Below the pieces are notes generated by a model. That model ran no database searches, was not told the DNA's origin, and worked only from the letters and a program-made list of their open reading frames with translations. Made by a program: the position numbers and the translations under genes. Below are positions 10,351-52,979 of a stretch of DNA of 64,000 nt, in pieces (the stretch's first letter is position 1; each line of letters opens with the position of its first letter). The stretch comes from Candidatus Woesebacteria bacterium (lineage in GTDB: Bacteria > Patescibacteriota > Microgenomatia > UBA8517). The stretch is from NCBI GenBank assembly GCA_016700095.1, contig CP065002.1:867141-931140 (forward strand), given 5' to 3'.

Positions 10351-10496
10351 GTAATGTTAATTTATAAATTGTTAATCCAAGCAAACCAAGGTAGAGGTAT
10401 TTTGATAATTGAATTGCCCGACCGGGGTGATGTGTGGCAAGAAAAAAACAAACTATAAATAGAATTACCGATGTTATACTTACTAATACACGTTTC
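10351..10496. promoter_or_regulatory. Divergent intergenic region between the 902-aa GT-C gene (minus) and the YfhO/GT39 pair (plus). Presumed bidirectional promoter.
   Basis: This is the only strand switch to plus for multi-gene transcription in the first 30 kb. AT-rich with TATAAT-like hexamers. No experimental support. Confidence 0.3.
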
Positions 10497-12458
10497 ATGA
10501 TCAAATTACCAAAGGTATCAACACGCAGTTTAATGCCGTACTTTTTCATAATTCTATCGACTATAGTATTATACCTCCCGGTTTTAATAAATAGTGATCT
10601 TTTTTTGAATAGAGGTAACGACTTAACCGAATTCTTCTGGCCGATTTATTTATATGTCAAAAACCAGATTTTAGCGACACATAAATTGCCATATTGGAAT
10701 GGCATGTTCTTGTCAGGTGTGCCACTTTTACCTGACCCCCAATCGCCTATCTTTTATCTTCCCAATATCATTTTTATGGTCTTGCCCATCGGAGTTGCTT
10801 TTATCATTTCATCGATAATACATACTGCATTTGGGGGAATCGGAACATATTTGGTATGCTACAAGGGACTAAAATTTAAGCTACTACCTTCATTGTTTGG
10901 ATCCTTTGCATATCTACATCTGGCTCGGTATAGCGGCTTCATAGAAGCCGGTCATTTCGGCTTAATAGCGGCCACAACATACATTCCTTACGTTTTTTTA
11001 TCACTAATTATGATCTCAAGAAATCCCTCCCTCACATGGTCGGTAATTTTTGCTTCAAGTTTAGCGGGTATATTTTTCACTCACCCGACAACATTTGTAT
11101 ACGCAGCACTTTTTTCATTTCCGGTATTTTTCACTCTTACTAATTTAACTAGGCGAGCACATAAAACTTGGCTTTTTTATATTATCGGCGGACTTATTTC
11201 ATTTGGATTTACGGCAATAACACTGTTACCTCAATTAAACTGGGTTCCTCAAACTAATAGATTTTTATTATCGGTTGATAAAGATGTATACCCCAAGTGG
11301 AATTCTATTGGCGAATATGCTCAAAGCATTTTCGCTCCGTGGCTTAATGGCATATCAGGGATTAGATCGATCGACTCGGAAAAATGGCTTTTTATTGGTA
11401 TATTGCCAAGTATATTGGCGGTATATGGTTTTACGCAAATTAAAACCGCAAAGAAGAAAGTATGTATAATGCTACTTCTATTTACCTTTGCCCTATTTTC
11501 TCTAAATAACTTGTCACCATTTTACACTGCGCTTCTTAATCAAAATTGGTATGTTTTCGGCCGTGTCTCAACGCGAGTATGGTTTATGGTTTCTTTTCCG
11601 ATTATTTTGCTGGCAACATATGCAATTAATGTTTTAAGCACTAAACACACCAGATTAGCTTACATTCTTGCAATGCTAGCAGTTGTTGAGATTACAACAA
11701 TTTCACTAAGCCACATTACCAAACCGATACGTAACGATAGACTTATAGCAAGTAAAAACGTCTTGTCTTTTCTTGCAAACGACAAAGATAGATTTAGAGT
11801 ATTTTGTACCACCAGATGTTTCTCTCAAAAGGATGTAGCCGAATACGGCTTAGAAACAATCGAAGGATACTCGACCCTGCACCAAAAAAATTATTACCAG
11901 AGTGCATGGGGAATGACCGGAGCTTATTGGAATTATTACACACTCACGCTTCCGCCAATCGGGTCATACAAATATGGGAAATTAGATCCAAATTATGAGA
12001 GTCTGGGCAATTTCAATACAAAATATATCGTATCGCCTTATGAAATAGTCCATTCCGATATCGTGTTTCTTACTGCTATTGATGGTTTTAATATTTATTC
12101 TAATAATAAATACAAACCACGTGGTTATTTTGTTGAAAACGACAAAACGCAGACAGCCGATATTAAATACTACTCTCCCAACAAAATCGTTATTAACGTC
12201 AACACCACATCAAAACATCTAATTCTCGCCGAAGTGTTTAGCCCCGGATGGATTGCTTTGGCCGACACGAAAAAAGTGCAAGTGCAAGAAACCCCCAATG
12301 CACAAAGAGCAATAGATTTACCATTAGATACTAAAATGGTTGAATTATATTATCAACCCGTCGGATATAATTTGGGAAAAACTATTACTGTTGCGACTTT
12401 GATTGGTTTATCGTTCTATGTATTAAGTGTTAACTTGAAGAAAATCAAACTACCTTAA
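10497..12458 (+). CDS. YfhO-family membrane glycosyltransferase (GT-C-like)
   Basis: FFWPIYLYVKNQILATHKLPYWNGMFLSGVPLLPDPQSPIFYLPNI closely resembles the conserved YfhO N-terminal signature (hexose-P-C55-dependent glycosylation of teichoic acids). The ORF track start at 10434 is a GTG codon. ATG codons at 10497 and 10536 are more plausible starts. Confidence 0.6.
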   Translation: MIKLPKVSTRSLMPYFFIILSTIVLYLPVLINSDLFLNRGNDLTEFFWPIYLYVKNQILATHKLPYWNGMFLSGVPLLPDPQSPIFYLPNIIFMVLPIGVAFIISSIIHTAFGGIGTYLVCYKGLKFKLLPSLFGSFAYLHLARYSGFIEAGHFGLIAATTYIPYVFLSLIMISRNPSLTWSVIFASSLAGIFFTHPTTFVYAALFSFPVFFTLTNLTRRAHKTWLFYIIGGLISFGFTAITLLPQLNWVPQTNRFLLSVDKDVYPKWNSIGEYAQSIFAPWLNGISGIRSIDSEKWLFIGILPSILAVYGFTQIKTAKKKVCIMLLLFTFALFSLNNLSPFYTALLNQNWYVFGRVSTRVWFMVSFPIILLATYAINVLSTKHTRLAYILAMLAVVEITTISLSHITKPIRNDRLIASKNVLSFLANDKDRFRVFCTTRCFSQKDVAEYGLETIEGYSTLHQKNYYQSAWGMTGAYWNYYTLTLPPIGSYKYGKLDPNYESLGNFNTKYIVSPYEIVHSDIVFLTAIDGFNIYSNNKYKPRGYFVENDKTQTADIKYYSPNKIVINVNTTSKHLILAEVFSPGWIALADTKKVQVQETPNAQRAIDLPLDTKMVELYYQPVGYNLGKTITVATLIGLSFYVLSVNLKKIKLP

Positions 12459-12489
12459 TTATGATTGCAAATTATTGCATGTTTAGTCA

Positions 12490-13980
12490 ATGAAATTAGT
12501 AATTTACAAAAACTACAAGATTATTTTAATATTAGTACTTTCTAGTTTACTACGTTTTTCCAACTTGCCTGCAAAAATTACTTTTACCGCAGATGAAGCA
12601 TATCTGTCCTACGTCGCCCAAACACTGATTAAAAACTTCCACATCATATGGATTGGTTGGAGTGCATTAGGGTTTGACGTTTACTTAGGGCCCTTATGGA
12701 TATATGTCATTTATCCATTTCTATATTTATCGCACGGAAATCCCATTATTCTGGGTTATATTTCCGGTTTTCTTGGAGTACTAACAACTTTTGCAATTTA
12801 TAAAATCGGCTCTAAATTTTTTAATCACCAAGTAGCCATCTTGTCATCACTAAGTTACGCACTATTGCCCTTATTAATTTATTATGATCAAAAACCTTAT
12901 CCACCCGCCATACCACTTATTAGTCTTCTTGTGACATTTGCTTTACTGAAAGTAAGAAAAAGCGCCAAGTGGTGGGTCGTAATTTCATTTCTTTATGGAC
13001 TGGTTTTTAATATTCACCTTTCATTGGTTTTACTTGCTTTTCCTATCCTTTACGCATTATTTACTGGAAAAAAATATCTTAACAAAAAAATATTAGTCAG
13101 TTCATTTCTGGTATTTATTGTTACCGTTTCACCGCTTATTGTTTTTGATTATTATAAGAAAGGGTACAACATACAAGCTCCCCTAAGAGCGTTTAATGCT
13201 AGTCAAAACTCTACCGAAAAAACCTCCGGTCATTACGACGAATTGTTTTCTTCCTTTGGACGAATTTGGTATTTGAATTCATTTAGTGAAGTCGCCGACG
13301 AAATAATACCAACATGCAAAGAAAATGCGCTATCGACTTACTCACGACCTCCGCTTGGCATATCTATCGTTTCGTTGGCAATTTTTATATCCTTTGCTCT
13401 TAATAAAAAAACATGGAAGGATTATTCGCGTAAAATGTTACTTTTTGTCAGTTTAACATTTATCATTCCTTTTACGTTAGTTACCGTTATTAATCCTGTT
13501 GAATATTATCTGCTGGGGTTTTTCCCGATTTTACTCATTATTACATCAGTAGTTATTTACGACCAAAGAAAAATAGTCAAGATGTTTTTATTGCTACTTA
13601 TGTTTTCGTGTTTGATCTATGCACCATTCGTAACCCTAAGAGCAAATACAAATTACGGTCTTGAGGCAAAAAAAGAACTGGCTCAACAAGTTGCCCAATT
13701 AGTCGACGGCAAACCTTATTACCTGCAAGCCCGTGGCGGTTGTCAAAGCGTGGGTGGATGGCGATATCTTTTTTCCATCTATGGGCAACGACCCGCAAAA
13801 AGCTATGACGACGTAAGTTTTGGCTGGCTTTATCCTGATGAAATAACAAGTGAAAAAAGCGTTTACGAAGTATTAGTTGTTGAGAAACGGGCAAGTGATC
13901 ACACTAATTTATATACTAATTACGTTAACAAGGTAACATCCGGGGGTTATGAGGCTTTGATTTATAAAATTAGTGATTAG
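12490..13980 (+). CDS. GT-C glycosyltransferase, ArnT/PMT (GT39/PMT_2)-like
   Basis: N-terminal TM helix then FTADEAYLSYVAQ (DE motif), with more than 10 TM helices after it. 496 aa. Confidence 0.65.
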   Translation: MKLVIYKNYKIILILVLSSLLRFSNLPAKITFTADEAYLSYVAQTLIKNFHIIWIGWSALGFDVYLGPLWIYVIYPFLYLSHGNPIILGYISGFLGVLTTFAIYKIGSKFFNHQVAILSSLSYALLPLLIYYDQKPYPPAIPLISLLVTFALLKVRKSAKWWVVISFLYGLVFNIHLSLVLLAFPILYALFTGKKYLNKKILVSSFLVFIVTVSPLIVFDYYKKGYNIQAPLRAFNASQNSTEKTSGHYDELFSSFGRIWYLNSFSEVADEIIPTCKENALSTYSRPPLGISIVSLAIFISFALNKKTWKDYSRKMLLFVSLTFIIPFTLVTVINPVEYYLLGFFPILLIITSVVIYDQRKIVKMFLLLLMFSCLIYAPFVTLRANTNYGLEAKKELAQQVAQLVDGKPYYLQARGGCQSVGGWRYLFSIYGQRPAKSYDDVSFGWLYPDEITSEKSVYEVLVVEKRASDHTNLYTNYVNKVTSGGYEALIYKISD

Positions 13981-14707: not shown

Positions 14708-15139
14708 TTATTTACATTTATAAAATTCATAAACCGATATTGTGAGCCCCAAGATAAAAGCCTGAAACATATAAATCATTGTTCGCTCGGCCCACACGCC
14801 AACCCCTAGAGCGAGCAATAATTCCGCAAAGGCTAAAAAAAACAACGATATCACAAAAATAACTTTGCTAGTTGCCCCAAGCATTATTACGGCAAGAATC
14901 AAACTAATCATGACAATAATATTTATCGTTAGTGGCAAAAAGGGGTGAAAATATCCGGCAGAATGAAGCAAGACAAGAAGTATTAGAATAATATTATAGG
15001 TAAATAGACCGGAAAGATGTTTATTTGCCCATGCTTTTGTTTTGACCTCTTTATGTCCCCAAAAGGTTCTTGACAGTCGTTTATTTATGTACTTTTTTAG
15101 ATCTTTTAACATAATTATAAAGAGGAAATATGAGCACAC
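14708..15139 (-). CDS. Small 3-4 TM membrane protein, possibly a GtrA/GtcA-like lipid-sugar flippase. Function unproven.
   Basis: 143 aa with hydrophobic helices. Sits between a GtrB-like GT2 and a giant GT-C. No recognisable GtrA signature, and the true start is uncertain. Overlaps the 3' end of the upstream gene. Confidence 0.3.
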   Translation of the reverse strand: MCSYFLFIIMLKDLKKYINKRLSRTFWGHKEVKTKAWANKHLSGLFTYNIILILLVLLHSAGYFHPFLPLTINIIVMISLILAVIMLGATSKVIFVISLFFLAFAELLLALGVGVWAERTMIYMFQAFILGLTISVYEFYKCK

Positions 15140-18038
15140 ATATCACAACCGTCGCCAAACTTACAAATAGTCCAAAGTAATAATATTTCTGTGTGGTATA
15201 GAATATTGTAAATTCCTGTGTAGTGCTATTCCCGGGCATATACCAAGCGTTTGCGTATCCATGGGCACTAAAGTGTAGTGGTTTTCCCAAATATGAGGCG
15301 CTAACGATATTCCAGTTCGGACTATATTTTTCCAAAAACACTAGCAAGTAATTATCATTGATATTTTCCACCTTCACCTTGTACTTCGTTGGGTTAACTT
15401 TTGTAAAAGATACCGTTGGAGTATGTATCGTGTCAGCATTTTGTTCTATTAAAAAAAGCTTATTATCATAGATACGCTTAAAGGAGATATTTTCAAAATA
15501 TGTTTTACTTCTCTTCTCCCGACTATCAACTGGGATTTCTATCACCACATTCATCGTTGAACTTGCTCTGACTGGTTCAACAAAAATTTCTTTTTTATTC
15601 CAATCGGTATCTTCATCGACTTTAGTGGGTAAAACCTTATACTTCGCAGCTCCGCTTTCTTGGACTATATTAACATTCGGTGTATTACCATAGATATATT
15701 TGTATTCATATGAGAACAGATAATTGGCGTATGGATTGAATTCATCTACCGGGACAATTAGACTCTTCTCATTAATACCATCATTAAACACGATCAACAC
15801 ATTGTCGTTATTCAATAATTCTTCTCCTTTGATATGGAGATTTTCATTTCCCTTTAATACCAGATCTTTGCTGATCAGGTTACTGTTCTCAGGATAAACA
15901 ATATCCACATTATGTTCACCCTGCGTGACCTTAATATTTTTGAGTATGTAAAATGTATCGGTTTCAACAATTTCTGTATCTTTATTTAACAGATCCGGGA
16001 AAATTACGCTTAGATCACTTCCGTTGTAACCTCTTTTTTCGATCGCTAATTCATAAATTCCCTCAGGAACATTTATTAAATACCTTTGACGATTTCCAAC
16101 CGGATTACTGCCATAGGTCGTATTGTCTAACTGGAATATGTTTTTCTTGATATCTTGCGAATTATCTATCTTATTTACTTCACTGTCACCAGCGAGAGTA
16201 ATTACGCGATTTGGATCAAGATATGGCAGTAACGTATCAAATACAGAATCATCAGAATTATTTGTATATAGTCCGTTTGCAGTAAGAATTTTACCAGGAT
16301 AGTCAGCATTTTGGTAAAAAGTCCATTCACCGAAAACCAGTTTATCTTTTTCCGGTATTTCTTTTGAATGATATATGGATACGGCGTCATTTTTCATGAA
16401 TAAAGTATCAGCATTCAAAAACGATAGAGACTTAAATACCGAGTCGTAATTCTCCTGTTTGATATTATTATAGATTCCTTGCAATATAGGCTTTAGTCCC
16501 TTACCCAGAAAAACAAAGGATGGTGCCACGGTTTCTTTGGACGAAAATAGATTAAGAACGGTTTCTGTACCCCTATATCCCCATTTAAACTGTTCCAGTT
16601 CATCCTCGGGATAAACAACGATACGAGCACTACTCTCACTATTATCAAGATATTTTTTTGTTTCCCATACATAGTCGGGGATTTTAACAAAAAAACTATC
16701 TGATTTTTGTGGACGAAATATTTTACCTGTTATAAGTGGATACTCATAAAGTAAGCCTCCAATTACAAAAATTACTACTCCCAAATATATCAAGCGCTTG
16801 CCAAGTATTATATTGAGAATTTTCTTGTCACCAAACCTTTTTAATATATTTTCAACAAGTAATCCGGAAAGCACGGCATATGCCAATATCACGTAAGGCG
16901 TAAATATATACCATGGACTTCTGAAAAACGAAAAGTACGGTATATATTTAGCCATCAAATTATATAAACTACCTGTTGGTTCATGTAATCCGGCTCCCAT
17001 AAAGATACCGATTACCAACATAATTCCTGTATATACATACAAATAGTTTTTCTTATTGTTTAGTAAGATGTAGGAAATAATTACAAGCGTTGGAACAACA
17101 AAACTAAACAGAATAAAGGGGAGTTTATAAAAATAGTTTAATGCGTATGGAATATACATCGGAAAACCCGATTGATCAACGGCATACCAATCCCAAGCTC
17201 CTTGTAATCTAATAACATTCAGAAGGCTGGTGTTTTCAGATAATGCCGCAACCCAGTTTGTATATCCAATATTCTCCAGAGTTAATACTGCTCGATCCGC
17301 TAGCATAAAGTGCGAAAACGGTACAACCCAATATAAATTTGACATAATGATAACTACACTCATTAACATTGCACCTAAGAAGATATGTCTGATTTCTCGT
17401 TTTCTAAAAGGTAATATTGTTAGAAAGTAAATTATCACTCCACCCATTAATGTAATAATATATGCAGGATTTATCCCGGCACCTGAAGTAATCATGGAAA
17501 ACAAAACACTATAAAAGAGTAACTTCCCATTCGATAGGGCATCAAATACATATCGATTGGCTAACCCAATAAATAGCGGTAAACCTACCATAACTGCGAG
17601 GTTAGCAACTTTAACGTTTTCCCATGTGTTGAACAAATAAATATTATATGTATAAATAAATACAAGTATTAGCTGAGCAAGTTTATTGTTTTTAAGAAAG
17701 GTTCGCGAAAGATAATAAGAACCAAAAACAATTGAAGAAAACCAAAATACAAGTGAGATTATTTGCACATGCCGTAAATTAAATCCCAAAACATGAGGTA
17801 TAACTTGAATCAAATGAAAAAACCAACCGGAAGTTGACGTTGTCGCATCCGCGCCGGTTCCAATTGTGTCATTCCAAACAAAAAAGCGTCTTTCAAACCA
17901 GACCAGAGGATCAAGTGGAAAGTTGGTATCTAGTCCATTAATGATGACATCGGGTCTACCAACAAACCACAGCAATGGAGTTAGTGACATGGCAAACATT
18001 ATAATTGTAAGCCAATGCTCTTTAATTATTTGTTTCAT
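15081..18038 (-). CDS. Giant GT-C-like membrane glycosyltransferase (985 aa), AftD/DUF3367-like
   Basis: The N-terminal loop GRPDVIINGLDTNFPLDPLVWFERRFFVWNDTIGTG resembles the DTKLDL...W.P..G.G signature of alpha-(1->3)-arabinofuranosyltransferase-like proteins. About 14 TM helices and a roughly 550-aa extracytoplasmic C-terminus. Confidence 0.5.
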   Translation of the reverse strand: MKQIIKEHWLTIIMFAMSLTPLLWFVGRPDVIINGLDTNFPLDPLVWFERRFFVWNDTIGTGADATTSTSGWFFHLIQVIPHVLGFNLRHVQIISLVFWFSSIVFGSYYLSRTFLKNNKLAQLILVFIYTYNIYLFNTWENVKVANLAVMVGLPLFIGLANRYVFDALSNGKLLFYSVLFSMITSGAGINPAYIITLMGGVIIYFLTILPFRKREIRHIFLGAMLMSVVIIMSNLYWVVPFSHFMLADRAVLTLENIGYTNWVAALSENTSLLNVIRLQGAWDWYAVDQSGFPMYIPYALNYFYKLPFILFSFVVPTLVIISYILLNNKKNYLYVYTGIMLVIGIFMGAGLHEPTGSLYNLMAKYIPYFSFFRSPWYIFTPYVILAYAVLSGLLVENILKRFGDKKILNIILGKRLIYLGVVIFVIGGLLYEYPLITGKIFRPQKSDSFFVKIPDYVWETKKYLDNSESSARIVVYPEDELEQFKWGYRGTETVLNLFSSKETVAPSFVFLGKGLKPILQGIYNNIKQENYDSVFKSLSFLNADTLFMKNDAVSIYHSKEIPEKDKLVFGEWTFYQNADYPGKILTANGLYTNNSDDSVFDTLLPYLDPNRVITLAGDSEVNKIDNSQDIKKNIFQLDNTTYGSNPVGNRQRYLINVPEGIYELAIEKRGYNGSDLSVIFPDLLNKDTEIVETDTFYILKNIKVTQGEHNVDIVYPENSNLISKDLVLKGNENLHIKGEELLNNDNVLIVFNDGINEKSLIVPVDEFNPYANYLFSYEYKYIYGNTPNVNIVQESGAAKYKVLPTKVDEDTDWNKKEIFVEPVRASSTMNVVIEIPVDSREKRSKTYFENISFKRIYDNKLFLIEQNADTIHTPTVSFTKVNPTKYKVKVENINDNYLLVFLEKYSPNWNIVSASYLGKPLHFSAHGYANAWYMPGNSTTQEFTIFYTTQKYYYFGLFVSLATVVICVLIFPLYNYVKRSKKVHK

Positions 18039-19680
18039 ATTCTTTCTTTATTTCATCAGTAATTTCAATTAATGATTCAATATCTCCTTGCCATTTATAG
18101 GCTATAATTGCATTACTTGGAATATTATATTCTTTTATTGCATTAAATAACTTATCTTTATCTCTAAAGTATCCAAAACCTCGACCGTCATACTCTTTGT
18201 AACCCTCCTCTTTGATCTCCCAAAGAAATTTGTTTTCATAAAATTGGACAGGAAGTTTTTCCTCGCTATACCAAACCAATAAAGTCTGGCCCAATCCTGA
18301 TTGAAAAGGTAATATTTTGTCGGTTTCTGGAAGTCCAAAATAAGAAGTATCGCTTTGGGTATAAAAAACTACCCTGTCAGGTAATTTGGTATGGCTGGCT
18401 TTAACTGCTAGTAATATATTTTTGCGTATTATTCCATAATCAACAAGTGTTTTAATTTGTCCAGTTAGGGCAACAATGTTTGTAATTATAACTATCGAAA
18501 GCGCGATATGTTGTGCTTTTTTATTTTTAAAAAGAGAATCCACTATCATAATAAGGAGTATAAACACTCCAACGCTTGTTAAGTATAGATTTCTCGAGTC
18601 GAGAACATTAATCTTTCCAAACCGCTCTGGGGACAAAGCATATATTAAGCTGTTTAAAATTACATAAACATAGAAGAACAATATTATATTTTTCTTTTCT
18701 TTGTCTTTGTGTCTTATGTACACAATATATATAAGGTATGAAAATATTACAAAAAAGGCTAAGGATAACCCCTCAAGAATTATTTTCTGTGCAAACAAAT
18801 CAAAGGTGGTTGTCCCAATAACAGGTCGTAACGATTCGGGTATTTTCGCCGCAATGAAATAACTAATTTTTATGAAGTACTGCAGGGGAATCACTGTTTG
18901 CGTAACAGTCTTCATGGGAAACGTAAGTAAGTTGTAAGTAATATCGGTCAAGCTTTGAGTTTCTGTTATCATGGGAGTAGCTCCGACGTTGTGTATAAAT
19001 AACATACCCGCTCGAAGTACAAAAAAGGATACTCCTGTTGCCAATGTTGCTATAAGTTGTTTATGTTTATTTTTGTTATTACTTAGATACAAGATTAGGG
19101 CATACAAAGCAAACATACCAATAGCGATTTCTTTGAACAATAAAGCGGCGATAAGCAACACAATCGAGTATGACCATCTGCGAAAATTTCCAGTTTTTCC
19201 ATATTTTATAAAATAATAGATAGAGATCAACGTGAATGAGGTTGCTCCATGTGTATTAATATTTGCCCCAACCCACGTGGTTGCTTGATAAATTGAAGCG
19301 GAAACACCAAATAGTAATGCAACTATCGATGCATAATATTTCCGCTTTAAATTCAATAAGACTAACTTGTAAACAAGAACAACATTTACTAAGTGCCACA
19401 CTAAACTTGCTCCAAACCACATTTGGTAATTTAAGTTAAATAACTTAAATATTGTTAGAAATACTATTCTTTGAAGTGGATTGTAATGATTTATTTCTAA
19501 TCGAAAGTAGCTAATTACCGTCACAAGAGGATTCTTTCCGACATCTCCCAAAACATCCGCAAACGCCAACCATTCATCTTGAGCAAAAAACGATTGGAAA
19601 CATCTTATGTAAGAAAGACATACTACCGCCAAACATGCAAACAAACCATATTTATCTAGATATTTACTTTTATTTTCCAT
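18022..19680 (-). CDS. GT-C-like membrane glycosyltransferase of the 'FxQD(D/E)' subfamily
   Basis: FFAQDEWLAF follows the first TM helix. About 11 TM helices and a roughly 150-aa soluble C-terminus. Paralogous N-terminal motif to the genes at 23351..25321 and 25318..27987. Confidence 0.45.
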   Translation of the reverse strand: MENKSKYLDKYGLFACLAVVCLSYIRCFQSFFAQDEWLAFADVLGDVGKNPLVTVISYFRLEINHYNPLQRIVFLTIFKLFNLNYQMWFGASLVWHLVNVVLVYKLVLLNLKRKYYASIVALLFGVSASIYQATTWVGANINTHGATSFTLISIYYFIKYGKTGNFRRWSYSIVLLIAALLFKEIAIGMFALYALILYLSNNKNKHKQLIATLATGVSFFVLRAGMLFIHNVGATPMITETQSLTDITYNLLTFPMKTVTQTVIPLQYFIKISYFIAAKIPESLRPVIGTTTFDLFAQKIILEGLSLAFFVIFSYLIYIVYIRHKDKEKKNIILFFYVYVILNSLIYALSPERFGKINVLDSRNLYLTSVGVFILLIMIVDSLFKNKKAQHIALSIVIITNIVALTGQIKTLVDYGIIRKNILLAVKASHTKLPDRVVFYTQSDTSYFGLPETDKILPFQSGLGQTLLVWYSEEKLPVQFYENKFLWEIKEEGYKEYDGRGFGYFRDKDKLFNAIKEYNIPSNAIIAYKWQGDIESLIEITDEIKKEYETNN

Positions 19681-20707
19681 ATGTTTTCAGTTCAGTTTTT
19701 ATATTAAATACGTATTTAATGTAATAATACACTATAGTTATCAAAGTAAAATAAACTAATAAAGGATGAATCATGTATACATAATTTCTTTTGGAAATGG
19801 TAATTCGAACACCGTCAACAAGTGGAAATATTAGTGACATACCATACAGAATAAATAAATATTTTCGAAGCCTTACATCACTGTTGGTTAGTACTTCTCG
19901 GCCGACATACCCACCCTTTCCCATGTCCGACCTAAAAATGTTGTTTTTAACGCGCGACACAATCTTTTTCACATATGTAGCCAAACTAGTGGTTGAATAA
20001 TGAAGAGTTGGATCGTTTTTTGTGATTGCGACAAGTTGCTTATCTTTTATCAGTAGGTAGAAAAGTAATGCTATATATTCAGGATGTTTCGATAAATGCG
20101 GATAGTGTTTCTTCGTGTATGTTGCATCAATCATGCACCCTCCCGCCCAGAGCTCAAATACACTACTGTTAGAGGAATTTGCAAAATCAAATATAACACA
20201 ATCTTTTGTTTCGTTAATTACACGATATTTATTTCTCAGCGATGTGATTAATGATTTATCGTCTTTGGATTCCTTGTAAACAAATTGCGTAAAGGGGTCA
20301 CCGAAGCTATTTATGTAGTAGTTAATTTTTGAATAGTTCAAAGGTGTTTTGTACCCAGTGGTGATAACTGCACGCGTATTTTTTTGTGTCTTAATGGCTT
20401 TTAGTTTTAATTCAACACTATTTACATTTTCCAAAACTTCATCGCTGTCTATAAAAATAATGTAATCCCCGGTCGCCTTGTTGTAACCCACCTGTTTCCC
20501 ATATATTAAATCAACTTTATTATTACGATATATTTTACATTTGTATTTTTTACATATAGCTAGTGTCGTATCTGTCGAACCTCCGTCAGCAATTAAAATT
20601 TCTATGACGGCACGTGTTTTTTGTTTTCTTATCGAACTAAGAGTTTTTTCGATAGTCCTAGAAGAATTCAAAGTTGGTATTACAAAGCTTACTTTATCTT
20701 TTTTCAT
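19670..20707 (-). CDS. GT2 glycosyltransferase with a C-terminal TM helix
   Basis: VSFVIPTLNSSRTI...ILIADGGSTDTT...IFIDSDE (DXD), with a hydrophobic C-terminal segment. Confidence 0.75.
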   Translation of the reverse strand: MKKDKVSFVIPTLNSSRTIEKTLSSIRKQKTRAVIEILIADGGSTDTTLAICKKYKCKIYRNNKVDLIYGKQVGYNKATGDYIIFIDSDEVLENVNSVELKLKAIKTQKNTRAVITTGYKTPLNYSKINYYINSFGDPFTQFVYKESKDDKSLITSLRNKYRVINETKDCVIFDFANSSNSSVFELWAGGCMIDATYTKKHYPHLSKHPEYIALLFYLLIKDKQLVAITKNDPTLHYSTTSLATYVKKIVSRVKNNIFRSDMGKGGYVGREVLTNSDVRLRKYLFILYGMSLIFPLVDGVRITISKRNYVYMIHPLLVYFTLITIVYYYIKYVFNIKTELKTYGK

Positions 20708-20735
20708 TATTGGTTGTAAAAACTTTTAACCATTG

Positions 20736-21050
20736 TTATCGCGTTTTTTCGTGTTCGAGATATTGGTTGCATGGTAAATTTACTTTCGTATTCGCAATTT
20801 CCTCGGTAATTGGAAAACCACCTCTTTTATACCCTATTTCTTGATATGCGAGTGACAAATGTGGAAATGGTAGTTGATCGCAAGTTATTACCGCATGTCC
20901 ACCTCTTGGAACGTCCTTGAAGATTTTATGCATATAAAATTCCCGTTTGAATTTAAATCTAGAATTTTTTCCACTTTCGATTATTGTTAAATTGCCACGT
21001 TCATCTAATATGGTTTGGAGTTTAGTGAATTTGCACTTTTTTATGTCCAT
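20736..21050 (-). CDS. FdtA/WxcM-like cupin (sugar 3,4-ketoisomerase family), apparently truncated or degenerate after about 75 aa. Possible pseudogene remnant.
   Basis: [11 protein letters not shown]...[10 protein letters not shown]...PRGGHA matches the FdtA/QdtA N-terminal half. The conserved HxxKxxxQ...GLYIGP..W C-terminal half is absent; only 104 aa are present versus about 135 expected. Confidence 0.4.
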
Positions 21051-21106
21051 GGATTCTCAATACAGTTTTCAGCAAAGTATACAATATAGTTGCTATAATT
21101 ATATAT

Positions 21107-21574
21107 ATGAATAGTGATGTTTTTATCCATCCACTTTCGGATGTGAGGACAACCAACATTGGTTCAAAAACTAAAGTGTGGCAATTTTCAGTTATTCTTG
21201 AAGGGGCAGTTATCGGAAAAAACTGTAATATCAATTGTCAAACCTTCATCGAAAACGACGTCGTTATCGGCGACAATGTCACGGTAAAATGCGGTGTTTA
21301 TATCTGGGATGGAATACGGTTGAAAGACAATGTCTTTATTGGCCCAAATGTCACTTTTACTAACGATAATTTTCCGAGATCGAAACAATACCCGGAAAAA
21401 TATTTACCGATAATCATAGAAAAAGGTGCTTCGGTCGGTGCAAACTCCACTATTCTCGGCAATATTACAATAGGGGCAAACGCAATGATTGGAGCAGGTA
21501 GTGTGGTTACAAAAAACGTACCACAAAATCAACTTTGGATGGGAAGTCCGGCAAGATGTGTTAAAGAAATATGA
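21107..21574 (+). CDS. Left-handed beta-helix (hexapeptide-repeat) sugar N-acetyltransferase, FdtC/WxcM/PglD-like
   Basis: Repeating [LIV]GxN[VC]x[IV] hexapeptides ([50 protein letters not shown]). 155 aa. Confidence 0.7.
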
Positions 21575-22050
21575 ATATAAATATTGTTTACAACCACCTG
21601 ATTACCCTAAGAGCGAGAATAAGATCGCAGTTCTGGAAATTGTTTCTCAAAAGAATGGGAAAACATGTTGATATTATGGGGAATGTAAAAATCATGAGTC
21701 CGCAAAAAATATCAATAGGAAATAACGTGCTAGTAAATTCGGAAAGTAAATTAGGTGGGCAATGCGGTATCGAGATTGGAAATGATGTGTTGATTGGCTA
21801 CAACGTAAATATCGTTTCGCAAAATCATGCGTATGACGACAGGAACATACCAATTAAAAATCAAGGATTTTACGGACGGAAAATTGTAATTAAAGACGAC
21901 GTATGGATTGGTGCAAACGCCGTAATTCTTCCCGGTGTTACTCTTGGAAAAGGATCCATTGTGGGTGCCAACGCGGTTGTGACAAAAGATGTTGAACCTT
22001 TCACAATAGTGGGCGGAGTACCGGCAAAATTAATAAAACAAAGAATCTAG
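21571..22050 (+). CDS. Hexapeptide-repeat O-acetyltransferase (LacA/NodL/CysE-like)
   Basis: [33 protein letters not shown]...GGVPAKLI is the classic maltose/galactoside acetyltransferase C-terminal signature. ATGA overlap with the preceding acetyltransferase. Confidence 0.8.
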
Positions 22051-23156
22051 TTTTTTAATAAATAGTTCACGATAATTTCCGACGGTTTAATATTAGTTTT
22101 TACAGGTTTTCTTCTTCTTTTTTTATAGTCGGTAAGAAAATCATTTATGATTCCGGTGTCTCCTTTTGACAGTACTACATTTTCGTTTAACCCCTCAATT
22201 TGCTCAGTGTGTTCTCTTAACAACAAACACGGTTTCCCCATTAAGTAAGCTTCAAACTGATTTGTCGCCCCATCGGTTGCGATATATTCAGCTTTTTCCA
22301 TTAATTTAATAAAGGTTGAATAATTAATCAAAGGCATTATTTTTATATTCTTATTTTCCATATCCAGCGATTTAATTATTTTTACTGTGATAGGGTGATT
22401 AAACAGCACACACACAAGTTTCTTTTCTGAATTATCTATCACAGTTTTAATTATCTTTTTCGACCAATTTTTGCGAAATATTACATGTTCTTGTCTGTGT
22501 AATATTAAAATGTAATATTTCTGTTTTGGTATAACATTTTTTTGAATAGTTTGTTTCTTATACCAATTAAACCCTTCAAGTAAAGTATTGAAATGGGTGT
22601 TTATTTTGGGTTTATGGATATTTTTGAGATTATTTGTTGCCCATGTACTCGGAGGAAACAACACATCGGCAAGTCGAATATTGATATTCCTACAAATTTC
22701 TTCGGGAAACGGTTCTTTCAAATTCTTAGACAAATCTCCACTTTCTATGTGAATAATTTTTATGTGTAATATCTTGGCGATAATTGCACCAATTGTAGTT
22801 GTAACTGGATCGCCATATATAATTAAATTGATATTTTTTCTTGCCTGCATTTTTTCTTTATGCAAGATATCAAGACCGAGAATAAAAGCTTTGACCGCCC
22901 ATATTCCAAAACGGAATACTGAAGGCTTAGTGCTTTTGTTTATAAGTAAAGTCGTTTCTAATTGTCCAGTATACTTTTCAACCTCTTTTACGCGAACATT
23001 GTTTTGACCGGACAAAATAATTTTATATTTTTGATTTCTTTTCTTTAGTTCTATCAATATCGGAGCAACACGAATTAATTCAGCGGTAGTGCCAACCATA
23101 AAAACAAAAAGTGTTTTTCTTTTTGTTTGATTATTAACTTGCTTTGTCATTTTCAA
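22047..23156 (-). CDS. UDP-N-acetylglucosamine 2-epimerase family protein (WecB/NeuC-like, Epimerase_2)
   Basis: [50 protein letters not shown] and [24 protein letters not shown] align with WecB VLTVFGTRPEAIKMAPLV, VHGDTTTTLA...VGHVEAGLRT and SPWPEEANR...HFSPTE. Confidence 0.7.
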
Positions 23157-23350: not shown

Positions 23351-25321
23351 TTACATTACCAATTCTTGGATTATTGGACTGATGATTACATAGCTTGGAG
23401 TGAAATTATTCTGGCTTTGTAAGTATATATTTCTAAGCAAAGTTCCACCAGGCGGTATTATAAACTGAATATGACTCCCATTTTCTGAATTGTTTTCAAC
23501 TATCGCCTGAGCTTCTTTGGAGTCAAATATTGAACCAAACGTATCATACTCCCAAGATACATGTATTACGTTTTTCAGTATCGTGTTATCAAGTTTAACA
23601 ACTACACTCAAAGGTGCCATAGAATTTATATCATAACTTGAAAAATCGGCTTTTGTACGATTATCTACTTTGTCCCAATTGGGATCTATATTTAAACTCG
23701 TATCCCAGAGCAAACTCTCCCGCAAACGCCAGCTCGTGTTTACAACGGAGTCTGGAGTTACCATGAAAGAATAAATATTCTCAATAGGCAAATTTCTTTC
23801 CGTATAAATTGACTGTATACTCGACAAGTTCTCGGGGTAAATAATTTTATCTATCGAGACATCTAAATTGTAGGCAAACGCTGCCTCCGTAGATAGTTGT
23901 CCTACACGGGAAGCATCTCCAACGCTATATTGTAAATCTTTAAGCGATGCATCGGTAAAAATAATAATCGGTGTGTCTTCAGCTTCCACCTCTTGCCGGA
24001 CAGAATTGAACATACGTCTTGCAGTTACACTGTACTTGTCAACAAATTTATATTGAGTGCTAACTGCGTAATACAAGTGTAAAAATATCAAAATAAAAGC
24101 AATAATAGTTGTTAACGTTGTAACGTGTGATTTATTTTTTGTATCGGATAAGTACAATATGGTTATAAAAAGCGGTGCAACAAACGAAAGTGCCATCATA
24201 TAACGATAGTCACTTGATATGTAAAACTCCGGCTTAACCAGTATTAGACTTAAGGCAGCTCCTGCAAACATAGACAATATAATCAAGATTTGTTTCTTAT
24301 TTATTGAAAAAATAAAATTAAGAACTAAAAATATAAATAGGGCTAATCCAATCAGCGTAGATTCCAACACTACAACGTCTGATATTTTATCGAAAAACAA
24401 TTTCGCAGGCAAAAGATACAATATTATCGCTAATACACTGTACCTTTTAATCCTATTTGACATAAGTGAAAGTAAAATAATGTAAATAATTAGAGGTAGA
24501 AAATATGTCGACAACGACTCTAAATTATATTTTAAAATTGGGTTCGCCAAAAACTTCTGCTGGAGATCCGTCGGTACTATACTATTTGCCAAACTTGATA
24601 ATACCGACGAGACAATCGTGTATTTATCGGCTTTAAATATCGCATTCCCCGTGACTTCATACGTACCGTAATCAATCACATATGAAATCGGGTGAATGAA
24701 AAGCTGCATTAAAAACATGAATAAATAAACAGACGCATTGCGTACACTCTCCTTAACTTTCACCTTGTTAGAATACAATACGATAATTGTTAGTATTGGT
24801 ATTATAATTCCAGTAAACCGATGTGATGCTGACTCCAAGGTGGCAATGAAAAAAAGACAAGATAGTAAAATATCTTTTTTCTCTCGTAGTTTGTAATACC
24901 GAATTAAACTAGCAATTGATAGCAAATAAAAACTAAGTCCCAGCAGTACTCCCGCACCATCTCCGGCAAACATAAATAGCGATTGCTGTCCAGTATATCC
25001 GCTTGCAAATATAATGGTTAATAAATATATTTTATATTTCCCCAACTTTGCTATTTGGTGCAAGAGACAGAAAAGTGCATATACACAAAATGCAAAAAAT
25101 AACAGAGCAATAAGATGGTAATAAAATGAATTTTTCCCAAATAGAGAATTGATTATGTACACAATGTACGTATTTATATGATATGGAAAATCTGGGACAA
25201 TTTTTTCTTGTGCGAAATACAAATGAGTATAATCATCATTCCAAAAATACATCATGAGGGTCTGTCCATAAGAAATAATAATCGTACATATAATAAGAAT
25301 GTTGGGAATAAATTTTTTCAT
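23351..25321 (-). CDS. GT-C-like membrane glycosyltransferase, 'YFWxDD' subfamily (656 aa)
   Basis: YGQTLMMYFWNDDYTHLYF follows TM1. About 12 TM helices and a roughly 200-aa soluble C-terminus. Tandem paralog of 25318..27987. Confidence 0.45.
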   Translation of the reverse strand: MKKFIPNILIICTIIISYGQTLMMYFWNDDYTHLYFAQEKIVPDFPYHINTYIVYIINSLFGKNSFYYHLIALLFFAFCVYALFCLLHQIAKLGKYKIYLLTIIFASGYTGQQSLFMFAGDGAGVLLGLSFYLLSIASLIRYYKLREKKDILLSCLFFIATLESASHRFTGIIIPILTIIVLYSNKVKVKESVRNASVYLFMFLMQLFIHPISYVIDYGTYEVTGNAIFKADKYTIVSSVLSSLANSIVPTDLQQKFLANPILKYNLESLSTYFLPLIIYIILLSLMSNRIKRYSVLAIILYLLPAKLFFDKISDVVVLESTLIGLALFIFLVLNFIFSINKKQILIILSMFAGAALSLILVKPEFYISSDYRYMMALSFVAPLFITILYLSDTKNKSHVTTLTTIIAFILIFLHLYYAVSTQYKFVDKYSVTARRMFNSVRQEVEAEDTPIIIFTDASLKDLQYSVGDASRVGQLSTEAAFAYNLDVSIDKIIYPENLSSIQSIYTERNLPIENIYSFMVTPDSVVNTSWRLRESLLWDTSLNIDPNWDKVDNRTKADFSSYDINSMAPLSVVVKLDNTILKNVIHVSWEYDTFGSIFDSKEAQAIVENNSENGSHIQFIIPPGGTLLRNIYLQSQNNFTPSYVIISPIIQELVM

Positions 25322-28918: not shown

Positions 28919-30994
28919 TTACAAATTCCCGTGACTATTTGGAAATACGATATCAGTATCTAATTTAATTGGATTTGGGGTCCATCCTCCAAAATCTTCG
29001 GATACATCCGCCTCAAACACTTCCAGTTTATCAAAATATACATCCGACTGTGATTCTTGGTATACACCAATACTCACAACAGCATAACTCGAATTTTTAG
29101 GTATAGCGTGTGCAAATTGTTGTTTGGTAAACTCACTACTTGTTATCCGCGGTGATATTCGAACCGCGGTTCTATTTTTACGTTCGGTCGCATCACTTGC
29201 ATTTTTAAAGTATTCAACAAAGACGAAACCATCTCTGGAGTTCAATCCTTCAAGTTTCGACACATGGGTTATCATTAATCCCTTTATATTATCTACACTA
29301 AAATAATTTGAGCTCCAGCTTCGAAAGTTAACTTTTTCATTTTTGTTAAAGGTAAACTCCAATAACAGATTTTTTACTCTCACATCCCTATCGGGAATTT
29401 TTACTACTACAAAATCAGACTCGGGTGCTAATGCAGGATTTGTAATCGAAAAAATCGAATAATCGGAATATTCTCGAATTACAAGTGCTGGATACGCCTC
29501 TTCAAGTAATTCTACCGGTTTGTTCCAGTATTTAAGAGAATTCATTGTCCCTTGGGACATCCACCAATAAAATTCATTTGTCATCCATTCTAGGTTTATC
29601 GCTACGAAGTCTGCATCATTAAATTCCTCCATACTATAATTATGTTTTTGATCAAACGGTAAACGTTCATAATTAACGCTATCAAAATTAACCGAGGAAT
29701 GTGCTGCTATCTTTGAACCCGGAGGTATATTTTCCTCGATCCATTTTTTAGTAATCAAATAGTTCCATTCCTGTCTATACTCATTTCCCACTACAACAGA
29801 TTTTGATATATTTTCAAACAGAGCTAGTCCAATTAGAGGAATAATAATTAATAAACCCACCTTTTTTGGAACTGATTTTGATATTTGTACTACAAATGCT
29901 GATGCAAAGATCATTAATAATGGAGTTACCGTAATAAAGTTTCTCGTGTAAAACCCTCCTCCAGTAAGAAATGTTATGACAATCAAAAAAGGTACAATCA
30001 CAGATAGCAGCATAAGCTTCTCTTTAAATCTGGTAAAAATACTTATTATTCCCAAAATTACGAGCACGCTTGTAACCCTACCCAAACCATAGTGGTACAA
30101 ATATGAATAAGGGAAAAAATCGAATTCATTTTTACCTGTTTTATATTTCAAAGATACATCTACTATCTGTTCTCTAAATTGCTCAAAGTGAATAAAGTGA
30201 TAAGGATTTATTATTAAAGTAATAACCATTATCGACAATCCTGCAATAAATATTTTTTTGTCAAACAAACAACCTATTAAAGCGCTTTTGTTTTTAAAAT
30301 GAAAATAAAAATGAGCTAAAAGTAAAGGTGGTATGGCGTAAACATGAAACTTTGTGGAAAAAGAAAGTCCAGCTCCAATTCCCGCTAAAAGATAACTCTT
30401 AATACTTGGTTTATCAATAATTCGATAGGTTAGTAATAGTGAAAGTAATAAAAAAAATGCATTATAAATATCTGGTAAAGCGAGGTGGCTGTTTAGAACT
30501 TGTCTGTAATTTACAGCTACAAACACAGATGATAACAATGCAACTTCTTTTGCAAACATTTTTTTTGCAAGTAAATAAGTTAACAAGACATTTCCAACAC
30601 CAACTGATGCCGCAATAATTCTACCCCAAGTAAGAACATGTATTTCTCTAATCCCTAATATACTGAGTTGTAAGATTTTATTAGATTCTTCGGTTGTTAG
30701 TGGAAAGTTATACAATCCGTCGACGAACATGCCAATGTTTGATATGTAAAACTTCCCCCAAGAAAATGGTATAAATATTAATTTAAAAAATAGAGCGTTT
30801 AGTATCGGTATTAAACCCGGATATGCATAGTGAAGGGAATAGCCGTTTGCATCTAGCGTACCATCAATCAATATATAAATCCCTTGAGAATAACTCATTC
30901 CTTCGTCAGCATGATATGGTGGATAACCGGGATAAATACCAGTAAATCGCAAATAAGCTGCAGCAAAAAGAATTGCTAGTAATATTTTTTTCAT
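28919..30994 (-). CDS. GT-C glycosyltransferase, ArnT/PMT (GT39/PMT_2)-like (691 aa), with a roughly 300-aa extracytoplasmic C-terminal domain
   Basis: LRFTGIYPGYPPYHADEGMSYSQ (DE motif after TM1), with about 11 TM helices. Confidence 0.65.
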   Translation of the reverse strand: MKKILLAILFAAAYLRFTGIYPGYPPYHADEGMSYSQGIYILIDGTLDANGYSLHYAYPGLIPILNALFFKLIFIPFSWGKFYISNIGMFVDGLYNFPLTTEESNKILQLSILGIREIHVLTWGRIIAASVGVGNVLLTYLLAKKMFAKEVALLSSVFVAVNYRQVLNSHLALPDIYNAFFLLLSLLLTYRIIDKPSIKSYLLAGIGAGLSFSTKFHVYAIPPLLLAHFYFHFKNKSALIGCLFDKKIFIAGLSIMVITLIINPYHFIHFEQFREQIVDVSLKYKTGKNEFDFFPYSYLYHYGLGRVTSVLVILGIISIFTRFKEKLMLLSVIVPFLIVITFLTGGGFYTRNFITVTPLLMIFASAFVVQISKSVPKKVGLLIIIPLIGLALFENISKSVVVGNEYRQEWNYLITKKWIEENIPPGSKIAAHSSVNFDSVNYERLPFDQKHNYSMEEFNDADFVAINLEWMTNEFYWWMSQGTMNSLKYWNKPVELLEEAYPALVIREYSDYSIFSITNPALAPESDFVVVKIPDRDVRVKNLLLEFTFNKNEKVNFRSWSSNYFSVDNIKGLMITHVSKLEGLNSRDGFVFVEYFKNASDATERKNRTAVRISPRITSSEFTKQQFAHAIPKNSSYAVVSIGVYQESQSDVYFDKLEVFEADVSEDFGGWTPNPIKLDTDIVFPNSHGNL

Positions 30995-41994: not shown

Positions 41995-42255
41995 AAACAG
42001 GATTCTACCAAATAGGCAATTATCAAGCAATGCTATCCGGAAGAATTTGACATAAACGAGTTACCCCATCAATAGTAAAACACACCCCACGCAATACAGG
42101 GTTTACACATCTCTTTTGTCAATTATTAGACAATTTCCAAAATTACTAAGTAATTTTGTTATTACATTTTATCGACACGCTACTAGATATTTAAAAGGCA
42201 TCAACAAAAAAAAGACTCTCGGAAGCGACACATAGCGTTTACCAGCAAATCAATA

Positions 42256-50813: not shown

Positions 50814-51177
50814 CTAATACATGTTTCTCGGGTGACATTCCCGGAATAGAAGTTACTTTTATCCAAGTACTGTTTCCTTGAGCAAAATGAATTTGACCTG
50901 GCATAATTGTAAAACTCCGTCCAGGTGTGATTGTATGCTCGCGCCCTTCAACGTTAATTATTAGATTGCCTTTTATAACCTCAATTACTTCTTGTGATTG
51001 CCTATGATAATGGGTTATTTTTTTATCAATAACCGCAATATAAACACTTCTTTGTGGATTTAATTCTCTTGATTCAAGTTCACAAATTACTTCACCGGTA
51101 TGAAGTAGATCGTCAACGTATATTTTTTTCCCGGGATAAAGAATTTTCAACTCACTTATTATCTTTTTTGCCTCCAT
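50806..51177 (-). CDS. Small cupin-domain protein (possible sugar isomerase or epimerase)
   Basis: HYHRQSQEVIEVIKGNLIINVEGREHTITPGRSFTIMPGQIHFAQ fits the cupin_2 two-His motif pattern. 123 aa. Confidence 0.5.
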   Translation of the reverse strand: MEAKKIISELKILYPGKKIYVDDLLHTGEVICELESRELNPQRSVYIAVIDKKITHYHRQSQEVIEVIKGNLIINVEGREHTITPGRSFTIMPGQIHFAQGNSTWIKVTSIPGMSPEKHVLVE

Positions 51178-52924: not shown

Positions 52925-52979
52925 ATAAAGCATAGTATAAAAAGACAACATAATTTAAATTTTTGCGAAAGTAGTATAA

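Follow-up and report, generated by a model that had tools for sequence, protein, structure and literature searches.

The isomerase FdtA folds as a domain-swapped two-sheet barrel of ~135 amino acids, and its activity requires His49, His51 and His95 in addition to this barrel (PMC2943079). In WxcM/FdtD (4mzu) a comparable cupin follows an acetyltransferase domain within one polypeptide. Loss of the Fuc3NAc/Qui3NAc branch has been described for Escherichia coli, where a point mutation in fdtB accounts for the change from O2 to O50 (PMC7685785). The window analyzed here, 64,000 nucleotides from a Candidatus Woesebacteria bacterium, contains a locus that appears to have lost the same branch by another route. 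As in O2/O50, one sugar-nucleotide branch would be lost from an otherwise intact glycan locus while other pathway genes remain. Unlike in E. coli, where a single base was changed, two genes have probably been fused here by a deletion, and the host is an uncultured bacterium of the candidate phyla radiation (CPR).

The FdtA-like head of the reading frame

The reading frame of 104 amino acids that a first-pass annotation had reported on the minus strand (20736..21050, ATG start) is real. In the public record it is named 'WxcM-like domain-containing protein'. Its fdtA-derived 5' part (20892..21050, minus strand) comprises codons 1-53, MDIKK...PRGGHA. Pfam PF05523 matched residues 5-60 with an E value of 3.2e-10 and 40.3 bits (cut-off 23), a partial match to profile positions 2-57 of 131. 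A profile built from 77 FdtA homologues of related loci scored 46.6 bits over residues 3-60, and the best of the FdtA/QdtA/WlaR PDB chains was the stand-alone FdtA 5tpu (E 7.6e-7). The FdtA/QdtA cupin N-terminus is thus genuine over the first ~53-60 residues; the earlier assignment to FdtA stands, the length of ~70 residues given with it does not.

Residues 1-53 align with the strands of the FdtA/QdtA N-terminus, including the RGxH motif. The motifs DERGNL, KR.FY and RGGH are kept, as are 8 of 12 conserved columns. Residue H52 is the equivalent of the catalytic base His49, the position of His51 is taken by a valine (V54), and the region around position 95 and most of the β-barrel are absent. 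A full-length barrel of ~130-140 amino acids, matching PF05523 from end to end, is not encoded by the reading frame. Because only the His49 equivalent is left of the catalytic set of His49, His51 and His/Arg95, and most of the barrel is lost, the product cannot be an isomerase, and functionally it is no member of the family.

The cupin does lack its second half, as the first-pass annotation had stated. Searches by tblastn with six full-length FdtA homologues detected no trace of it in the 64 kb window. Translation of the three minus-strand frames of 20700..21110 showed that the other two are stop-rich and hold no cupin remnant. A full-length alignment containing all catalytic histidines, or a complete small-cupin family to which the reading frame might belong, was also looked for and neither was found. 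A 123-amino acid Cupin_2 protein encoded elsewhere in the window (50806..51177) was considered as a relative of, or replacement for, the reading frame and was rejected, its similarity not being meaningful.

The aminotransferase-like tail and the junction

The remainder of the reading frame had been taken for unrelated sequence, but residues ~54-102 prove to be a homologue of the tail with which DegT aminotransferases of the QdtB/FdtB type end. The tail matched residues 306-351 of the 373 of QdtB (3frk, E 8.1e-5), with further PDB matches to 3uwc, 7b0d and 4qgr. This fdtB/qdtB-derived 3' part lies at 20736..20891 on the minus strand and consists of codons 54-104 and the stop codon. In tblastn searches residues ~312-353 of six FdtB homologues mapped to 20864..20748 with 39-55 % identity. 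For a seventh query, the fdtB product of locus L071, residues 302-356 mapped to 20900..20739 (38 % identity). A profile of 51 FdtB homologues matched the tail through positions 317-354 with 20.8 bits, whereas none of 5000 shuffled tails scored above 3.2 bits. Pfam PF01041, run against the tail alone, gave 11.2 bits (cut-off 19.8; E 0.21) over profile positions 312-351 of 360. Homology of the fragment to the DegT/DnrJ/EryC1 family is supported by these alignments; membership as an enzyme is not.

The tail aligns to the HYPxPxH...AY...GDFPxTE...LSLP region of QdtB/FdtB (PF01041; 3frk), but with the HYP motif degenerated to DQL and an end ~15 residues short of the usual FdtB C-terminus. It retains 10 of 19 conserved columns, against 13-16 of 19 in intact DegT proteins outside the training set. 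The ~305 N-terminal residues of the aminotransferase are missing and the last ~50 alone are present. Since the PLP-binding large domain with the Schiff-base lysine is gone, the product cannot be an aminotransferase either. The first-pass suggestion of a minimal cupin of a different family falls away as well, the second half being an aminotransferase tail and not cupin strands. In cases of this kind, where a truncated domain is followed by seemingly unrelated sequence, the neighbouring pathway genes are to be checked before a small-protein family is proposed.

Seven full-length FdtB homologues, searched by tblastn against the 64 kb, detected nothing but the reading frame itself and a separate intact DegT gene at 40894..42030. 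This paralogue was rejected as the source of the tail: it shares 35 % identity over 34 amino acids, which is below the values for FdtB homologues of other phyla.

The fusion junction falls within 20865..20894 (minus strand), most likely between codon 53 (GCG, Ala) and codon 54 (GTA, Val), at nucleotides 20892|20891. The FdtA consensus RGGHAH can be followed as far as RGGHA, and V54-I55-T56 can be lined up with the G-I-x-T found in FdtB proteins ahead of HYPIPxH. Over residues 54-62 the FdtA and FdtB alignments overlap and the assignment is ambiguous. The alignments show the breakpoint to lie within a few codons of Ala53/Val54.

The source is a metagenome-assembled genome of an uncultured CPR bacterium, and the junction might be a mis-join or a collapsed region of a genome that in reality holds intact fdtA and fdtB genes. 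Such an artefact is extremely improbable. The 1.27-Mb NCBI contig agrees over ~20.3 kb with a 26.4-kb contig of an independent Logan assembly (SRR11674018), with 2 mismatches in 20,315 nucleotides (at 26040 and 26053), both outside the feature. Repeats able to mislead an assembler are absent from the junction, and an in-frame mis-join between two genes of the same pathway, with flanks syntenic with those of relatives, would be an unlikely coincidence.

The neighbouring acetyltransferases and the syntenic frame

A divergent intergenic region of 56 bp (21051..21106) separates the reading frame from an intact gene of the opposite strand (21107..21574, plus), encoding a 155-amino acid homologue of FdtC-type dTDP-3-amino-3,6-dideoxyhexose N-acetyltransferases. 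The stop codon of this fdtC gene is overlapped by 4 nucleotides by the start of a second hexapeptide acetyltransferase gene (21571..22050, plus; 159 amino acids), a resident gene of the maltose/galactoside O-acetyltransferase type whose best-fitting PDB and NCBIfam entries are WcaF/WbbJ/maltose O-acetyltransferases. The divergent arrangement, its spacing and the tandem of N- and O-acetyl type transferases had all been described correctly in the first-pass annotation. The claim that this tandem forms the only other plus-strand island was wrong, since further plus-strand reading frames occur at 10434..13980, 32694..33614, 35750..36688 and 51992..54182. A scan for promoters and terminators gave counts not above shuffled background, which applies as well to the one weak promoter-like match in the intergenic region (minus strand, 21111..21083, 9/12).

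Among PDB entries the best match to the 155-amino acid protein was bifunctional FdtD (4mzu, N-terminal domain; E 1.2e-62); the N-acetyltransferases 7s43/7s3u matched with E ~1e-59 (residues 6-151). A full-length left-handed β-helix with the conserved residues of the FdtD N-terminal domain and 7s3u is present. Of 48 columns with a conservation of 90 % or more across 67 homologues, 46 are retained; position 119 carries a change from Gly to Asn. As a homologue of these enzymes it is predicted to be an acetyl-CoA-dependent N-acetyltransferase of dTDP-3-amino-3,6-dideoxyhexose, of the FdtC type, although fdtA and fdtB, which would presumably have provided its substrate, are both disrupted at this locus.

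The resemblance to FdtD and the presence of a cupin fragment only 56 bp away would agree with the proposal of a WxcM/FdtD-type origin, in which an ancestral acetyltransferase-cupin fusion gene broke in two and one piece was turned round, so that a shortened cupin now adjoins the acetyltransferase. Fused fdtC::fdtA genes of ~310 amino acids do occur among the homologues (L031 and L063, and judged by length also L052, L057 and L064). Nevertheless, the proposal has hardly any probability left. In contrast to WxcM/FdtD, the two reading frames lie head to head on opposite strands, and the alignment of the cupin head to stand-alone FdtA proteins begins at their residue 1-3 (5tpu E 7.6e-7, against E 0.95 for the FdtD cupin domain). 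A length of 155 amino acids fits stand-alone FdtC homologues (150-156 amino acids), and its nearest relatives, at 66-70 % identity, are unfused genes of fdtA-fdtC-fdtB clusters. Fission would moreover leave the in-frame aminotransferase tail behind the cupin unexplained. An inversion scar, as suggested in the first-pass annotation, fits no better: turning the plus-strand island back would place the O-acetyltransferase gene and not fdtC next to the cupin, and the search for inverted and direct repeats around the island and the junction yielded only short AT-rich matches of chance quality.

The flanks were compared with those of CPR relatives. A GT2 glycosyltransferase gene (19670..20707, minus; Pfam PF00535) starts 28 bp downstream of the chimeric reading frame, and a UDP-GlcNAc 2-epimerase-family gene (22047..23156, minus; Pfam PF02350, E 3e-36) lies at the other side; both serve as syntenic anchors. 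An Epimerase_2/Hexapep/GT2 block is common to six CPR relatives. GT2 orthologues in CPR contigs (45-51 % identity) always adjoin an Epimerase_2 and a Hexapep gene, the epimerase shares 47-49 % identity with the Epimerase_2 genes of L079, L081 and L082, and the 159-amino acid O-acetyltransferase shares 67 % and 61 % identity with the syntenic Hexapep genes of L082 and L081. Since the slot between Hexapep and GT2 measures 37-60 bp in four of the six relatives and the O-acetyltransferase is the orthologue of their Hexapep gene, fdtC and the chimeric reading frame are additions to the locus.

Origin and standing of the chimeric reading frame

Candidate parents of the two halves occur side by side in other loci. 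In L071 and L050 fdtA is followed by fdtB with an overlap of 4 nucleotides, in L053 and L044 the two genes are also close together, and these loci are the source of the best matches to both halves. Mapping of the breakpoints onto fdtA-fdtB loci gave a deletion of ~1.18 kb. In all likelihood, the reading frame is a non-functional remnant in which the 5' end of fdtA and the 3' end of fdtB were fused in frame by deletion; the simplest origin, judged from the sequences compared, would be one deletion of ~1.2 kb spanning two adjacent genes. The decaying pseudogene considered in the first-pass annotation was right in substance, but the remnant is a fusion of two genes and the fdtB origin of its C-terminal half had been missed. 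This is ordinary gene decay and not the birth of a new small enzyme, and it opens no new mechanism.

In the ancestral module fdtC would have been divergent from fdtA-fdtB. This module, the product of which may have been dTDP-Fuc3NAc or dTDP-Qui3NAc, would have occupied a variable slot, flanked by the resident genes for the O-acetyltransferase and GT2, in what is probably an envelope glycosylation island of this CPR bacterium (Candidatus Woesebacteria). The deletion would have joined the ends of fdtA and fdtB, in frame by chance, and would have shut off the Fuc3NAc/Qui3NAc branch. What remained of the module, an fdtC gene that looks intact but is orphaned, would now be the first gene of the acetyltransferase operon. 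Two observations fit less easily with decay. The reading frame is still open with a well-preserved FdtA head (46.6 bits), and fdtC looks fully intact, which is unexpected in a long-dead pathway. The preserved frame may point to a recent deletion and is compatible with expression or a residual role. With an intact QdtB-like DegT gene present at 40894..42030, the pathway may also be complemented in trans.

Among 152 loci with fdtC homologues (72 from genomes, 80 from metagenomes), most of those long enough to show it carry an fdtA and/or fdtB homologue in the same direction, and every fdtA found in the 152 is on the same strand as fdtC. An intact locus with fdtC divergent from fdtA-fdtB was looked for in 73 genome loci and 80 metagenome loci and in six CPR contigs located by their GT2 orthologues, and none was found. 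The pre-deletion arrangement is for this reason an inference, and two or more rearrangements may have been required. The commonest gene order is fdtA-fdtC-fdtB, in which a single deletion cannot yield this fusion. The same remnant could have arisen in several steps: from a cassette of the order fdtA-fdtC-fdtB or fdtC-fdtA-fdtB in which fdtC was first inverted or relocated, by separate acquisition of fdtC and fdtA-fdtB, or by horizontal transfer of a module already deleted. Besides the atypical divergent layout, such a route is suggested by the closest fdtC relatives, which belong to Bacteroidota and Brenneria (~70 % identity) while the flanking genes have CPR orthologues, and by the best matches of fdtC and of the remnant halves, which are in different loci. 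It is nevertheless unlikely, since a divergent module would need a single deletion and this route takes further steps; repeats, leftover fragments or similar footprints of such steps were not seen in the window, and the halves (53 and 51 amino acids) are too short for reliable phylogenetic placement.

On the preferred reading, a single deletion in a divergent module, the locus is easily misjudged. A 'WxcM-like' annotation next to an intact fdtC suggests a working isomerase and a dTDP-Fuc3NAc/Qui3NAc pathway, whereas two of the three pathway-specific genes, fdtA and fdtB, have been destroyed at this locus. The locus illustrates how a glycan island may change in a reduced CPR genome, modules being gained in a variable slot and lost by short deletions, much like the diversification of O-antigen clusters in cultured bacteria.

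It could be argued that the cell makes a protein from the fusion, or from a minimal half-cupin, and that this protein has acquired a role of its own, for instance in dTDP-sugar binding, in regulation or as a subunit together with other envelope enzymes. The 104 open codons with an ATG start, the retained motifs of the head and the place as first gene of the GT2 operon, 28 bp ahead of GT2 itself, agree with this, as does a second fdtA::fdtB chimera annotated as a gene in two further samples. Still, a functional protein is very unlikely. Less than half of the domain-swapped barrel of FdtA is left (PMC2943079), the tail is a piece of the aminotransferase small domain out of its context, and conserved positions are eroded in both halves. 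Any sign of conservation is lacking too: when 1.84 billion representatives were searched exhaustively with HMMER, 73 matches were obtained, with the best stretch mainly in the FdtA head or the DegT-type tail, and no other protein was a whole-length relative. A word-index homologue search of 5.8 billion clusters returned the reading frame alone.

The second chimera, P0060, was found in two metagenome samples (L077/L078) and is an independent fdtA-N::fdtB-C fusion. Like the reading frame described here, it has an FdtA head, extending to RGGHAH, and an in-frame FdtB tail, and its precomputed Pfam domains are FdtA and DegT. It differs in its fdtB breakpoint, which is ~12 residues earlier, in its sequence (35 % identity) and in its surroundings, a visibly decaying cluster in which fdtC is deleted and a frameshifted fdtA lies upstream. 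One might speculate that fdtA::fdtB fusion is a recurrent, possibly selected switch-off that yields a new small protein, a regulator or decoy in the envelope glycosylation of CPR bacteria, which might keep dTDP-sugar binding or act on FdtC or GT2; we give this scant credence. In both independent chimeras fdtA is broken within one or two codons of RGGHA(H).

An fdtA-fdtB fusion remnant and its junction

The first-pass annotation described a truncated gene for an FdtA-type 3,4-ketoisomerase, divergent from two tandem acetyltransferase genes. This description held: the ORF at 20736..21050 (minus strand) has 104 codons and an ATG start, 56 bp separate it from the 155-aa acetyltransferase gene fdtC (21107..21574, plus strand), and fdtC overlaps a second acetyltransferase gene (21571..22050) by 4 nt. 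At its N-terminus the remnant truly belongs to the FdtA family: residues 5-60 align with positions 2-57 of 131 of the Pfam PF05523 profile (40.3 bits, E 3.2e-10). FdtA and FdtB profiles were made from genes of 73 loci bearing homologues of the 155-aa acetyltransferase. The FdtA profile (77 sequences) scored 46.6 bits over residues 3-60, to which solved FdtA/QdtA/WlaR isomerases were also aligned (phmmer, PDB sequences, best E 7.6e-7).

The C-terminal half, earlier taken for unrelated sequence, in fact matches the C-terminus of DegT-type aminotransferases. When the entire ORF was compared with PDB sequences by phmmer, residues 306-351 of 373 of the aminotransferase QdtB (3frk) aligned to remnant residues 56-100 (E 8.1e-5), with weaker tail matches to DegT-family proteins 3uwc, 7b0d and 4qgr, each at its own C-terminal end. 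Pfam DegT_DnrJ_EryC1 aligned to the tail alone at positions 312-351 of 360, under threshold (E 0.21). Positions 317-354 of the FdtB profile (51 distinct sequences) align to residues 63-102; the tail scored 20.8 bits against it and the best of 5000 shuffled versions 3.2 bits. By tblastn, C-terminal residues ~302-356 of seven FdtB homologues map to 20900..20739 with 38-55% identity, and an intact DegT paralogue in the window aligns to the tail with 35% identity. Moderate erosion of conserved columns is seen in both parts. The head retains 8 of 12; of 19 tail columns with at least 80% conservation, the remnant has 10, and three intact DegTs not used for training have 13-16.

The FdtA consensus RGGHAHKE is kept through R49-G50-G51-H52-A53. 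V54 occupies the position of the second catalytic histidine of FdtA, and V54-I55-T56 aligns to the G-I-x-T upstream of the HYPIPxH motif in FdtB proteins. The join most likely lies at nt 20892/20891, as judged from these alignments, with an ambiguity spanning 20865..20894. An assembly artefact is unlikely at this point, since two assemblies are concordant and the flanks are syntenic. The independent assembly, from SRR11674018 (Logan contig, 26.4 kb), covers 20,315 nt of this region and differs at two positions, 26040 and 26053, both distant from the remnant.

FdtA folds as a domain-swapped barrel with two five-stranded sheets, and its active site includes His49, His51 and His95 (PMC2943079). 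The remnant keeps the His49 equivalent only, fewer than half of the FdtA strands, and the last ~50 of about 365 aminotransferase residues, minus the final ~15. Because catalytic residues, strands and most of the aminotransferase are gone, its product can be neither isomerase nor aminotransferase. A search of three frames of the ORF region for the missing cupin half gave no further fdtA or fdtB fragments, and tblastn found none across the whole 64 kb. At 20697..20738, where the remnant ends ~15 residues short of the usual FdtB C-terminus, the reading frame continues past its TAA for another 13 codons (QWLKVFTTNNEKR and a stop), running into the GT2 start. A secondary nonsense mutation could account for the remnant stop, as could a shorter tail in the deleted gene.

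Probable origin by deletion

RmlA and RmlB yield dTDP-4-keto-6-deoxyglucose, which is isomerised by FdtA/QdtA, aminated at C-3 by FdtB/QdtB and N-acetylated by FdtC/QdtC (PMC7685785, PMC2943079). Homologues of the 155-aa acetyltransferase occur in 152 loci (72 genome, 80 metagenome); among those of sufficient length to show one, most carry an fdtA and/or fdtB homologue on the fdtC strand. The commonest order is fdtA(-fdtA)-fdtC-fdtB; fdtC::fdtA fusions followed by fdtB are also present, as is fdtC...fdtA-fdtB with a 4-nt overlap between fdtA and fdtB (L071, L050; also L053, L044). The best matches to both remnant halves come from loci with adjacent fdtA-fdtB, and breakpoints mapped on L071 and L050 correspond to a deletion of ~1.18 kb. 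The simplest route would be a single deletion reaching from fdtA into an adjacent fdtB, with odds of one in three that the frame is preserved. None of the 152 loci has fdtA divergent from fdtC; therefore we infer the pre-deletion layout in the window, and a multi-step history is possible.

Other origins had been proposed. Fission of a WxcM-type gene (an acetyltransferase-isomerase fusion), or an inversion scar, would leave a truncated cupin beside an acetyltransferase, but is not supported: the cupin head starts with an N-terminus of its own and is like stand-alone FdtAs rather than the FdtD cupin domain (E 0.95 to the latter), the acetyltransferase is as long as its stand-alone counterparts, flanking inverted repeats were not found, and the aminotransferase tail would be left unexplained. 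A functional minimal cupin or fusion protein with another role is likewise unlikely and unsupported; neither of the two protein collections searched contains a relative of the entire ORF. Searched exhaustively with HMMER, 1.84 billion representatives yielded 73 matches at E <= 1e-3. Their best-scoring stretches correspond for the most part to the query's FdtA head or DegT-type tail; the ORF itself was the only full-length match. The ordinary explanation is that the remnant is a pseudogene, a deletion-derived in-frame fdtA-fdtB fusion.

The exhaustive search also gave an independent second fdtA-head::fdtB-tail chimera, P0060 (129 aa; junction RGGHAH/RARLQQHLNEDGIQTLIHYPIPPHLQQAY...), with both Pfam families annotated. 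It is found on contigs of two different metagenome samples (L077 3297..4089, L078 2443..3235), where a frameshifted fdtA immediately precedes it and there is no fdtC. Deletion fusions of the fdt cassette therefore recur, and the remnant is a fresh instance of an already known kind of event. The fdtA breakpoints of the two chimeras lie within 1-2 codons of each other, which is treated as coincidence, as there are two cases and the search is biased to similar breakpoints. In a 102-aa protein from a public collection (P0033), a tyrosine-recombinase-like N-terminus (…SKNTQLSYERDINQLKKYL…) is joined to an FdtB-type tail; several unrelated gene calls, truncated or chimeric, therefore carry FdtB tails. 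The value of the remnant is mainly an annotation correction and an example of how modules are gained and lost in a CPR (candidate phyla radiation) glycan locus.

A variable slot in a glycosylation island

The window is an envelope-glycosylation island of Candidatus Woesebacteria. Besides numerous GT2, GT4 and GT-C/PMT-like genes, it has genes for five methyltransferases, two flippases and a GDP-mannose 4,6-dehydratase (48514..49539); sugar nucleotidyltransferase genes were not found within the 64 kb. At least nine large membrane proteins are GT-C/PMT_2/AftD-like (3333..4724, 12490..13980, 15081..18038, 18022..19680, 28919..30994, 36689..38773, 55184..56608, 57907..59553, 61322..63148). For four large ORFs (7642..10350, 10434..12458, 59556..61268 and 63145..63912; 902, 674, 570 and 255 aa) Pfam gave nothing at E <= 1e-5, and for a 656-aa ORF (23351..25321) nothing even at E <= 1.

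Orthologues of the GT2 just downstream of the remnant (45-51% identity) are found on six other CPR contigs (L079, L081, L082, L163, L164, L165), all of which share with window 19670..23156 the block of Epimerase_2, opposite-strand Hexapep O-acetyltransferase and GT2. The 21571..22050 acetyltransferase is the orthologue of the relatives' Hexapep gene (67% and 61% identity). The Hexapep-GT2 slot is empty (37-60 bp) in four of the six relatives and holds a GNAT gene in one, an Amesbacteria-type contig; in the window it holds fdtC and the remnant, which thus form an extra module at a variable site flanked by conserved genes. DegT and GFO_IDH_MocA (WbpE/WbpB-like) genes come after GT2 in four relatives; the window lacks them there.

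FdtC and its possible amino-sugar supply

By its sequence, the predicted FdtC is intact, with matches to the N-terminal domain of FdtD (4mzu; E 1.2e-62) and to the N-acetyltransferases 7s43/7s3u (E about 1e-59); it retains 46 of 48 highly conserved columns. Residues 118-119 (21461..21466) are Gly-Asn where 4mzu and 7s43, the nearest homologues of solved structure, have Pro-Gly, Asn119 replacing a Gly 97% conserved among 67 homologues; Ile102 replaces a 91%-conserved Thr. The nearest relatives, from Bacteroidota and Brenneria, are only ~70% identical, which suggests a horizontal origin without a sampled donor.

With fdtC intact and the remnant product neither enzyme, fdtC is an apparent orphan, unless substrates arrive from elsewhere. 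No isomerase gene was found within the 64-kb window. An intact QdtB-like DegT of 378 aa is encoded at 40894..42030 (3frk, E 1.3e-92; 7b0d, E 1e-107); this paralogue, distinct from the lost fdtB, could in principle provide an amino sugar for the orphan FdtC. The gene for this QdtB/DesV-like C-3 sugar aminotransferase overlaps a GT4 gene (region 40894..43293), and ~225 bp separate it from an upstream SDR gene that is weakly RmlB-like (142 bits, cut-off 365).
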